Shown here piece by piece: positions 5,723 to 7,827 of a stretch of DNA of 49,628 bases. The stretch comes from Escherichia phage JMPW1, in the sequence record NC_041874.1; one strand, 5' to 3'. Under the pieces are notes generated by a model. The model was not told where the DNA came from. It saw only the letters and a program-made list of their open reading frames with translations, and searched no databases. A program made the translations under genes and the position numbers. The stretch's first letter is position 1. Each line of letters opens with the position of its first letter.

Positions 5723-6169
5723 ATGAAACACTTAATTTGCATTGAAACGCCTAACGACCAGTACACCCTGCACGGCATTGGAATGTTCAAAGGTCACTAC
5801 ATGACAGCAAGTATTCATGATTCGCGTTGCGTCAATGGCGATCTGATGATTACGTCAAAAGAAGTAACTCCGTACATTATGCAGAATCTTGGCAATAACG
5901 AATATATGGCCTACGGATGCAATGCGGTGTACAAGCATATCAAGATCAGAAAACGCGTTGTTCGCGCATTCAAGAAAATTGCAATGAAACAATGGAAGAT
6001 GAGCAAGAAAGATGCTGGACGCTGGGCGCGTAACGTTGCAGATTCATACTTCTACCGTAACGGTGAGTCCTGCCACTTCCTTATCGATGAACTTATGGAA
6101 AACTACGGCGGCGACTTCAGTCAGGGTGGCTTTGACGCTTGGGCTGACTACGAGGTCGATTACTGGTAA
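5723..6169 (+). CDS. hypothetical protein (148 aa)
   Basis: Start placed at ATG 5723 after RBS GAGGAAG; upstream ATG 5681 lies in promoter hairpin. Confidence 0.5.
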   Translation: MKHLICIETPNDQYTLHGIGMFKGHYMTASIHDSRCVNGDLMITSKEVTPYIMQNLGNNEYMAYGCNAVYKHIKIRKRVVRAFKKIAMKQWKMSKKDAGRWARNVADSYFYRNGESCHFLIDELMENYGGDFSQGGFDAWADYEVDYW

Positions 6170-6218
6170 TAGCACGAATTGCTAAAACTTGCTCAAGGGC
6201 ATTTGATAGAATGCCCTT
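6169..6218 (+). promoter_or_regulatory. Early promoter cassette: box + IR AAGGGCA/TGCCCTT enclosing extended -10 TGATAGAAT
   Basis: Box 6169-6188; IR 6195-6218; -10 6207-6212; CCAATCAGAGGA RBS follows. Confidence 0.6.
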
Positions 6219-6252
6219 CGTTGAGTTAAGCAACCAATCAGAGGAATAAATC

Positions 6253-6864
6253 ATGGATAAAATTACCATTTGGGGCCAGACAATCAACCTGTTTCTCGGC
6301 ACGCGCCGCGTAGCAATCTTTGACTTTGATGGAACACTTAGCGATGGATCTGGTCGACTTCACCTGCTACCTACAAAGGATTTGCACTTAACTGAAAGCT
6401 GGTCCGAGTTTAACCGCGCGGCAATATTTGACAACCCTATCCAAAGCACGATCGATGTGATGAACTCTATGTATGCCGCTGGTCATCATGTGATCATTTT
6501 AACCGGGCGAAGTGATGAGGTGCGTTACGCATCTGAGTTGTGGCTTAAGCATCACGGCGCTCGATATGATTACCTGATTATGCGACCATACACCGATAAC
6601 CGGAAAGACACAGTAATGAAAGAAGAGGCGGTGCGCGCGATCGGCATTGATAACATTCTGGCGGCCTGGGATGACTCACCGCAAATTATTCCATTATTCC
6701 GCTCACTTGGAATAACCACTTACGCTGTAGTTGACTATGGCGATAAAGTTCACGATCATTTAAAATCTCACGGGGTAGATGAGGTTTGCAATCATGAACC
6801 ATCTGAGCCGCTACCGCCATTTGGTGAGAAAATTTGCATTAAGTGCAAGGAGTTATTGAAGTGA
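6253..6864 (+). CDS. HAD-superfamily phosphatase (nucleotidase-like) with C-terminal CxxC
   Basis: HAD motif I FDFDGTL near N-terminus; later ILTGRSD and WDDS motifs. Confidence 0.6.
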   Translation: MDKITIWGQTINLFLGTRRVAIFDFDGTLSDGSGRLHLLPTKDLHLTESWSEFNRAAIFDNPIQSTIDVMNSMYAAGHHVIILTGRSDEVRYASELWLKHHGARYDYLIMRPYTDNRKDTVMKEEAVRAIGIDNILAAWDDSPQIIPLFRSLGITTYAVVDYGDKVHDHLKSHGVDEVCNHEPSEPLPPFGEKICIKCKELLK

Positions 6865-6972
6865 ACCTATACGAATTTATTGCAGCACATCCGGTACTAA
6901 CAGTTATCATTCTGTTAATCATAAACTCCACCATCATCAATGTGGCGAAATTATTTTTAGGGAGATACTGAC

Positions 6973-7545
6973 ATGAAAACAGCTATCATTTTAAACGGTG
7001 CGCCTGGCGCGGGAAAAGACACTATAGGGTGCATCCTGGCTGACACTTACGATCATGTAGCGCTACGCAGCTTTAAAGCTCCAATGTTTGAGATTGCCCG
7101 AGCAATCCTGGGTGAGACTAATTTTGAGTATTTCATGTTCTTGTATGAGGACCGTCGCTATAAAGAAGAGCCAGCATCAATCCTGAACGGTAAAAGCCCG
7201 CGCCAGTTTATGATCTGGATTAGCGAGGAGGTTATCAAGCCGCAGTTCGGAAATCGCTTCTTCGGTATGCGAGCGGAAAGCAAGGTGAAAGAGTCTCACT
7301 CCCTTTCGGTATTTACTGACGGTGGATTCAAAGACGAAATCTTGCAGATGATTGAAGGTGAAATCCAGGTCAAGCTATGTCGAATCCATCGCAACGGTTG
7401 CAACTTTGACAACGACAGTCGCGACTACATCTATCTTGACGATATGATCGGGGTCAACGGTTATCAGGAATGTGACTTCTTCTCTGTCGAAGGTCATCCA
7501 GAAATTACCGCTCAGCACATAGCCGCCACGTTCATCAACAAATAG
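6973..7545 (+). CDS. P-loop kinase, deoxynucleoside monophosphate kinase-like
   Basis: Walker A GAPGAGKDT and LNGKSP motif resembling phage T4 gp1 dNMP kinase (from memory). Confidence 0.55.
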   Translation: MKTAIILNGAPGAGKDTIGCILADTYDHVALRSFKAPMFEIARAILGETNFEYFMFLYEDRRYKEEPASILNGKSPRQFMIWISEEVIKPQFGNRFFGMRAESKVKESHSLSVFTDGGFKDEILQMIEGEIQVKLCRIHRNGCNFDNDSRDYIYLDDMIGVNGYQECDFFSVEGHPEITAQHIAATFINK

Positions 7546-7589
7546 CACGAATTGCTAAAACGTCGGTGGGGTGACTTGATATAGTTACC
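7542..7589 (+). promoter_or_regulatory. Early promoter cassette: box + imperfect IR enclosing extended -10 TGATATAGT
   Basis: Box 7542-7561; IR about 7568-7589; -10 7580-7585. Confidence 0.55.
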
Positions 7590-7617
7590 TCATCGACAAC
7601 GAAGAGAGAAAATCGAA

Positions 7618-7827
7618 ATGATGGTATCAACTGATAAGTTTTTCACTTGCACTAAAACTTCTGAAGTATTCGAACTGGTTCATACTGATAATGGTGACTT
7701 CATGCATGACGGTTGCGACGTTTTCATTGAAGTGAAAGAAAGCGACTATGACTATGGGGTTTATTATAACCCGGCAGTGAACACTCAGTTTTTTACACCG
7801 ATCGAAGAGGAAGGAGAAGAAGCATGA
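7618..7827 (+). CDS. small acidic protein (69 aa)
   Basis: ORF after cassette. Confidence 0.5.
   Translation: MMVSTDKFFTCTKTSEVFELVHTDNGDFMHDGCDVFIEVKESDYDYGVYYNPAVNTQFFTPIEEEGEEA

Follow-up and report, generated by a model that had tools for sequence, protein, structure and literature searches.

A conserved gene pair of T1-like phages encoding a predicted PNKP/Dmp-type phosphatase and a putative deoxynucleoside monophosphate kinase

We identified two adjacent genes in Escherichia phage JMPW1 (sequence record NC_041874.1; the whole stretch of 49,628 nucleotides is called the window). The first is predicted to encode a HAD phosphomonoesterase from the PNKP/Dmp lineage with its catalytic residues intact, and the second a kinase that, by homology to characterised enzymes, is probably a broad-specificity deoxynucleoside monophosphate (dNMP) kinase. 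As a tentative explanation, which we hold with a little less than even confidence, the pair would be an early two-enzyme nucleotide module kept in T1-like phages, in which the phosphatase removes 3'-phosphates or a non-preferred nucleotide. T1-like phages have no DNA polymerase and no de novo nucleotide genes, and they rebuild their genomes from host DNA (PMC11447400). The kinase half of the pair is understood; by triggering the Kongming defence, it also puts the phage at risk. The phosphatase half, a conserved protein of Drexlerviridae, is routinely mislabelled as a polynucleotide kinase; its substrate would tell whether 3'-phosphorylated breakdown products are processed or whether a nucleotidase sits beside a kinase, and would correct a widespread annotation.

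Both genes extend families that are already known. Papers on T1-like phages, including PMC11447400, already annotate the pair as 'PNK plus dNMP kinase', and the Kongming literature already contains the notion of a DNK-phosphatase module. In these two bodies of literature we found no statement that the so-called 'PNK' of Drexlerviridae is a phosphatase by itself and shares the PHROG of T5 Dmp, that it is translationally coupled to the DNK and in some phages fused to it, or that the data on phage Rao1 oppose a role as dAMP phosphatase.

The two ORFs are real genes, because database homologues are numerous (430 for the phosphatase and 80 for the kinase, for which there are also 4665 representative clusters) and because the structure models of both proteins are confident (pLDDT 95.6 and 83.4). 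Each ORF is preceded by a Shine-Dalgarno-like sequence, GAGGA for the phosphatase and GGGAG for the kinase. Enterobacteria phage vB_EcoS_IME167 and Escherichia phage phi2013 match the region from 6100 to 7700 at 100% identity, and dozens of Tunavirus (T1-like, Drexlerviridae) genomes match it at 90% identity or more. An earlier note on this DNA had described two adjacent ORFs with particular motifs, and all of these were recovered: FDFDGTL (aa 23-29) and a C-terminal CIKC (aa 195-198) in the phosphatase, and GAPGAGKDT (aa 9-17) and LNGKSP (aa 71-76) in the kinase. Features are collected in Table 1.

Table 1. Coordinates of the genes, repeats and related features (window positions unless another locus is named)
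Feature	Position	Strand	Remark
HAD (DxDxT) phosphatase, PNKP/Dmp type, 203 aa	6253..6864	+	core aa 20-160, Cys/His tail aa 178-198
Short gp1-type deoxynucleoside monophosphate kinase (DNK), 190 aa	6973..7545	+	
Doubtful hydrophobic ORF, 42 aa, GTG start	6843..6971	+	spacer
21-nt Drexlerviridae intergenic repeat copy, AATAGCACGAATTGCTAAAAC	6168..6188	+	upstream edge of the cassette
Next repeat copy	7543..7561	+	overlaps the kinase stop codon; downstream edge of the cassette
G+C-rich inverted repeat AAGGGCAT / ATGCCCTT	6195..6218	+	loop with -10-like TGATAGAAT; read from sequence
Repeat copies	1795, 3377, 4103, 5650, 6170, 7543	+	stronger copies
Repeat copy	46970	-	
Repeat copies, weaker	35265, 40339		
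P0216 fusion	L084 8001-9212		
Rao1 hairpin between gp57 (phosphatase) and gp58 (kinase)	L171 19955-19990		

The kinase belongs to phrog_139 (gp1/T5-type dNMP kinases) and has the gp1 fold with a GKD P-loop. Sequence searches against Pfam, NCBIfam and the PDB returned nothing useful for it, and phmmer missed 1DEK; its identity was established from PHROGs, a fold search and the literature only. Over its full length, it is 43% identical to R1DNK, which is gp58 of phage Rao1 (E 3e-47), and 45% identical to the KarlJaspers DNK (bas06_0076; E 3e-53). The three proteins share the motifs NGxPGxGKDT, SFKxPMF, DRxxKE, RxFMIWISE, DGGF and DSR, and the same HAD gene lies upstream of each kinase gene, although the phages belong to different genera (Rao1 is Rtp-like, KarlJaspers is a Hanrivervirus and the window phage is a Tunavirus). 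The Kongming (KomABC) defence responds to phage dNMP kinases, with R1DNK and the KarlJaspers DNK both acting as triggers (Zeng et al., bioRxiv 10.1101/2024.12.20.629578). According to the same study, purified R1DNK efficiently phosphorylates dAMP, dGMP and dCMP, and dTMP too; its K15A variant is inactive, R61Q is an escape mutant, and dNMP phosphorylation by the KarlJaspers DNK is implied in vivo. Because of this homology and the R1DNK assays, the window kinase is most probably a dNMP kinase of broad specificity. The earlier note had read the pair as acting on the nucleotide pool, and on the kinase side this reading holds by homology; for the same reason, we see no support for its counter-scenario of a kinase acting on polynucleotide 5'-OH ends.

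The claimed likeness to T4 gp1 is borne out by an identical LNGKSP hexapeptide in gp1 (aa 90-95), but the two proteins are just 13% identical, and the window kinase is approximately 50 residues shorter than gp1 (PDB 1DEK/1DEL) and T5 Dnk and lacks the LNGKSP-SVRR insertion of gp1. Residues were mapped by combining an HMM-to-1DEK alignment with partly manual motif matching; a global hhalign alignment of the kinase family with gp1 was unreliable beyond the first 74 columns. On this partly manual mapping, with the dNMP- and ATP-binding roles of gp1 residues taken from Table 2 of PMC10653934, the gp1/window equivalents R68/R61, R132/R77, M135/M80, D175/D116, E181/E122, R197/R140 and D204/D148 are kept, whereas R11, K37 and R177 of gp1 are not (G12, F39 and G118 in the window kinase). 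R61, the residue altered in the R1DNK escape mutant R61Q, is nearly invariant in the kinase family, and gp1 H206 is replaced by the invariant arginine (R150) of the DSR motif.

The phosphatase is a member of the HAD superfamily, with DxDxT, the motif II Ser/Thr, the motif III Lys and the acidic pair. It matches the PNKP phosphatase domain of Pfam (PF25109) with 60.2 bits at a threshold of 27.6 and phrog_415 at 2.7e-66. Among solved structures, Capnocytophaga Pnkp1 and T4 Pnkp have the phosphatase domains closest to it by sequence. The HAD motifs D24-F-D26-G-T28, T84 (LTGR), K123 and D140-D141 are invariant or nearly so in 53 homologues; all of the catalytic motifs align with T4 Pnkp, and equivalents of its essential residues D165, D167, R176, R213, D254, D277 and D278 are present. 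Compared with the 3'-phosphatase domains of T4 Pnkp and Capnocytophaga Pnkp1 (1LTQ, 5UJ0, 4XRP), the highly conserved segment that follows motif I (LLPTxDLHLTESWxEFN) is longer by 13 residues in the window protein, and a Cys/His tail is added. The window protein stands alone, with no PNK-type P-loop kinase domain joined to it; therefore, the labels 'polynucleotide kinase' and '3'-phosphatase, 5'-polynucleotide kinase' used in Drexlerviridae overstate what the gene contains.

The C-terminal CxH...CxxC tail is not family-wide, being absent from the 176-aa protein of T1 and present in some relatives. The Cys/His module (C-x-H ... C-x-x-C, core SEPLPPxG; 6784-6861 in the window, HAD residues 178-203) also occurs in the homologues P0101, P0114, P0129 and P0191, and it is duplicated in P0129. 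In the structure model, a linker of low confidence leads into the tail, which takes the form of small beta hairpins; the module may bind zinc.

The main rival to a 3'-directed phosphatase is a base-selective 5'-nucleotidase. On this account, the phosphatase is a Dmp-like 5'-deoxynucleotidase, perhaps selective for bases as in dUMP or dIMP, that trims the pool of a promiscuous kinase, with the effect that the pool is sanitised or that defences exploiting the kinase, such as Kongming, are blunted. The anti-Kongming protein Dmp of T5, a deoxynucleoside-5'-monophosphatase, falls into phrog_415 as does the window phosphatase, and T5 and the window phage each have a DNK gene as well. The segment from R35 to D60 has 25 residues in the window phosphatase and in T5 Dmp and 12 in T4 Pnkp. 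A profile of the T5 Dmp family matched the T1-type family in hhalign with a probability of 89.9% (E 1.7e-6, 143 columns), and the window homologue P0111 has a precomputed match to PF26880. This is the one Pfam family listed for the T5 Dmp homologues; a Pfam search with T5 Dmp itself gave no match. Moreover, Dmp homologues are reported mainly from DNK-encoding phages, and Dmp blocks Kongming (bioRxiv 10.1101/2024.12.20.629578).

Nevertheless, we consider the Dmp-like reading rather unlikely. Overall, the phosphatase of T4 Pnkp (probability 97.7%, E 1.5e-12) is a closer relative of the T1-type phosphatase than is T5 Dmp, for which identity in the alignment is approximately 25% and pairwise BLASTP was not significant (E 0.049); another insertion, of 24 residues, and an extended C-terminal region are found in T5 Dmp alone. 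In addition, a broad 5'-dNMPase that is co-translated with or fused to a dNMP kinase would create a futile cycle, and T5 separates the two in time: its Dmp is expressed before, and encoded far from, dnk, whereas the window phosphatase gene directly precedes the kinase gene. Because the window phosphatase, T4 Pnkp and T5 Dmp carry the same catalytic residues, the sequence does not decide between 3' and 5' specificity.

A second argument comes from the data on Rao1, whose phosphatase, encoded directly upstream of R1DNK, is 56% identical to that of the window. Although Rao1 has the pair, dAMP, dADP and dATP rise 2-3 fold during its infection, and the phage is sensitive to Kongming and is rescued by T5 Dmp supplied in trans (bioRxiv 10.1101/2024.12.20.629578). 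In our analysis, these published data argue that the Drexlerviridae phosphatase is not a dAMP phosphatase. Because of the dAMP build-up in Rao1, and because a futile cycle would otherwise arise, the phosphatase probably spares the main substrates of the kinase.

The module that we favour would work as follows. T1-type phages would gain dNMPs from degradation of the host chromosome; the kinase would convert dNMPs to dNDPs, and host Ndk would then turn dNDPs into dNTPs, supplying the host polymerase on which the phage relies. The phosphatase, sparing the main kinase substrates, would act on 3'-dNMPs, 3',5'-bisphosphates, 3'-phosphorylated DNA ends or a non-preferred nucleotide, and exonucleases and the kinase could thereby use the breakdown products. 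T1-type phages indeed degrade the host chromosome and reuse its nucleotides, and the responsible enzymes are an open question (PMC11447400); with modest confidence, this inclines us towards 3'-phosphate-directed salvage or otherwise a role without competition with the kinase. Several points weigh against the module. The phosphatase substrate in it is purely inferred, and T5 Dmp, a 5'-nucleotidase, shares the PHROG and the length of the cap insertion with the phosphatase. A 3'-phosphate-forming nuclease is, to our knowledge, not known from T1-like phages. Deletion of dnk in Rao1 moderately lowered dATP and had no measurable fitness cost (bioRxiv 10.1101/2024.12.20.629578).

We also considered a split PNKP, in which the phosphatase clears 3'-phosphates, the kinase phosphorylates 5'-OH ends and a host ligase seals the DNA or RNA breaks. 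This arrangement would fit with the nearest solved relatives of the phosphatase being end-healing enzymes of RNA-repair systems, with fusions in phosphatase-kinase order in some phages and with the location of the pair after a DNA-repair exonuclease gene in some Drexlerviridae. We regard it as very improbable because the kinase does not belong to the PNK type and ligase and tRNA genes are missing: no ligase is annotated in a complete genome that is 99.9% identical, and the window contains no tRNA genes. An RNA-repair system of Pnkp and RNA ligase was rejected on the latter two grounds. Two further leads were dropped, namely the handling of modified nucleotides, since the annotation shows no modification genes, and a paper on retron Eco2, in which PNK is a reagent only.

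The linkage of the two genes was followed in 80 IMG/VR loci of Drexlerviridae with close kinase homologues. The phosphatase gene lay upstream on the same strand in 74 of these, order and strand were constant in all 74 loci holding both genes, and no HAD gene was nearby in the remaining six. Spacing ranged from a 4-bp stop/start overlap to approximately 2.1 kb. The genes are predicted to be co-transcribed, and stop/start codon overlaps in many lineages suggest that the phosphatase is often translationally coupled to the kinase. The place of the pair differs by genus, as the KanT1 paper likewise notes: in the window, it lies in the early region, ahead of the terminase genes, whereas in Rao1 and Klebsiella phages it follows a repair exonuclease gene.

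A profile search of 1.84 billion representatives yielded two proteins in which the enzymes are fused, P0216 (403 aa) and P0228 (461 aa). Both have an N-terminal PNKP-type phosphatase, a C-terminal kinase and a common linker motif. In mammalian PNKP, the phosphatase likewise precedes the kinase; in the fusions, however, the kinase is of the gp1-type P-loop family, and there is no FHA domain. P0216 was found on three contigs of a phage of approximately 61 kb that does not look like a member of Drexlerviridae. It has Ser at the equivalents of phosphatase K118 and D119, and its phosphatase domain may thus be altered or inactive. Genes for a PAPS-reductase-like protein and a Dam methylase lie two and three genes downstream of P0216.

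The kinase also occurs on its own. Among more distant members of the short kinase family, from phages of 40-140 kb, a phosphatase was found within 6 kb in 22 of 80 loci, nearly all of them Drexlerviridae-like; neighbours of these distant kinases include genes for flap exonuclease, DNA ligase, ribonucleotide reductase and ThyX. Campylobacter phages D1 and A141 (approximately 137-141 kb; H80 and H81) encode the same short kinase family at 37% identity without the phosphatase, as do many podoviruses (Era103-like, phiEco32-like). Because most kinase loci outside Drexlerviridae, and six of the 80 within, lack a HAD gene nearby, the kinase does not need the phosphatase: the kinase is autonomous, and the phosphatase is an add-on mainly of Drexlerviridae. 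This distribution counts against the module that we favour. It would rather suit two enzymes with unrelated jobs whose adjacency is synteny inherited in a plastic early region, as would the insertion between the genes of unrelated small ORFs spanning up to 2.1 kb, or of the HNH homing endonuclease gene of T1. We give little credence to such a merely inherited adjacency, since order and strand are fixed, stop/start overlaps recur, the pair moves between genome positions as one unit and two distinct fusion proteins exist. The two proteins could also form a physical unit in which a PNKP/Dmp-lineage phosphatase with a specificity described for neither relative (perhaps for 3',5'-bisphosphates, or for a non-canonical dNMP, for example dIMP or dUMP) edits the substrates of a promiscuous kinase. 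We think this unlikely; if true, the unit would be a substrate-channelling salvage machine or a counter-measure to defences that hijack the kinase.

In the window, the two genes are separated by a spacer of 108 nt, whose only content is a doubtful 42-aa ORF without a match in Pfam and PHROG searches. At this position, T1 has a gene for a 164-aa HNH homing endonuclease (L003 4504-4998). A decayed copy of the HNH gene (L048 4780-5004) has a stretch, ILLII...KLFLG, in common with the 42-aa ORF, which may be a remnant of the T1 homing endonuclease site. The spacer appears as a hot spot that holds the HNH gene, a decayed copy of it or a small ORF. When we searched the inserts of other phages for a further partner, for instance a ligase, only small ORFs lacking an evident function and the T1 HNH gene were found. 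The phosphatase and kinase ORFs of the window share a reading frame, and when the two were joined as one query, tblastn returned single alignments spanning both; because five in-frame stop codons lie between the genes, we rejected translational read-through and a concealed fusion for the window phage.

The earlier note had also assigned each gene its own cassette, which did not hold up: an intergenic repeat of 19-21 nt, TAGCACGAATTGCTAAAAC, flanks the pair and has no copy between the genes, which thus lie within one cassette. Nine copies occur in the window with up to three mismatches, compared with 0.02 expected by chance. The 21-nt repeat is known from TLS, T1 and Rtp, and its function is an open question (PMC11447400). 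Approximately 8 nt after the repeat follows a G+C-rich inverted repeat with a -10-like sequence in the loop (TGnTATAGT, TAGAAT or TATAAT). This arrangement is the same in six aligned copies, in which the stems vary in a compensatory way (GGGGTA/TACCCC, AAGGCC/GGCCTT, AAGGGC/GCCCTT); we saw no mention of such a covarying hairpin around a -10 element in PMC11447400. Because of the -10-like TGATAGAAT in its loop, the inverted repeat upstream of the phosphatase gene is likely the promoter region of the pair; a simple sigma-70 and terminator scan of the cassette gave nothing above background and did not call this element.

The layout in Rao1 is alike, with a repeat before the phosphatase gene and just a short hairpin between the two genes. 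The 'promoter' deletion by which Rao1 escapes Kongming, a loss of GTTTTAAATGGCC, takes one arm of this GGGG...CCCC hairpin, which suggests that the hairpin affects expression of the Rao1 kinase.
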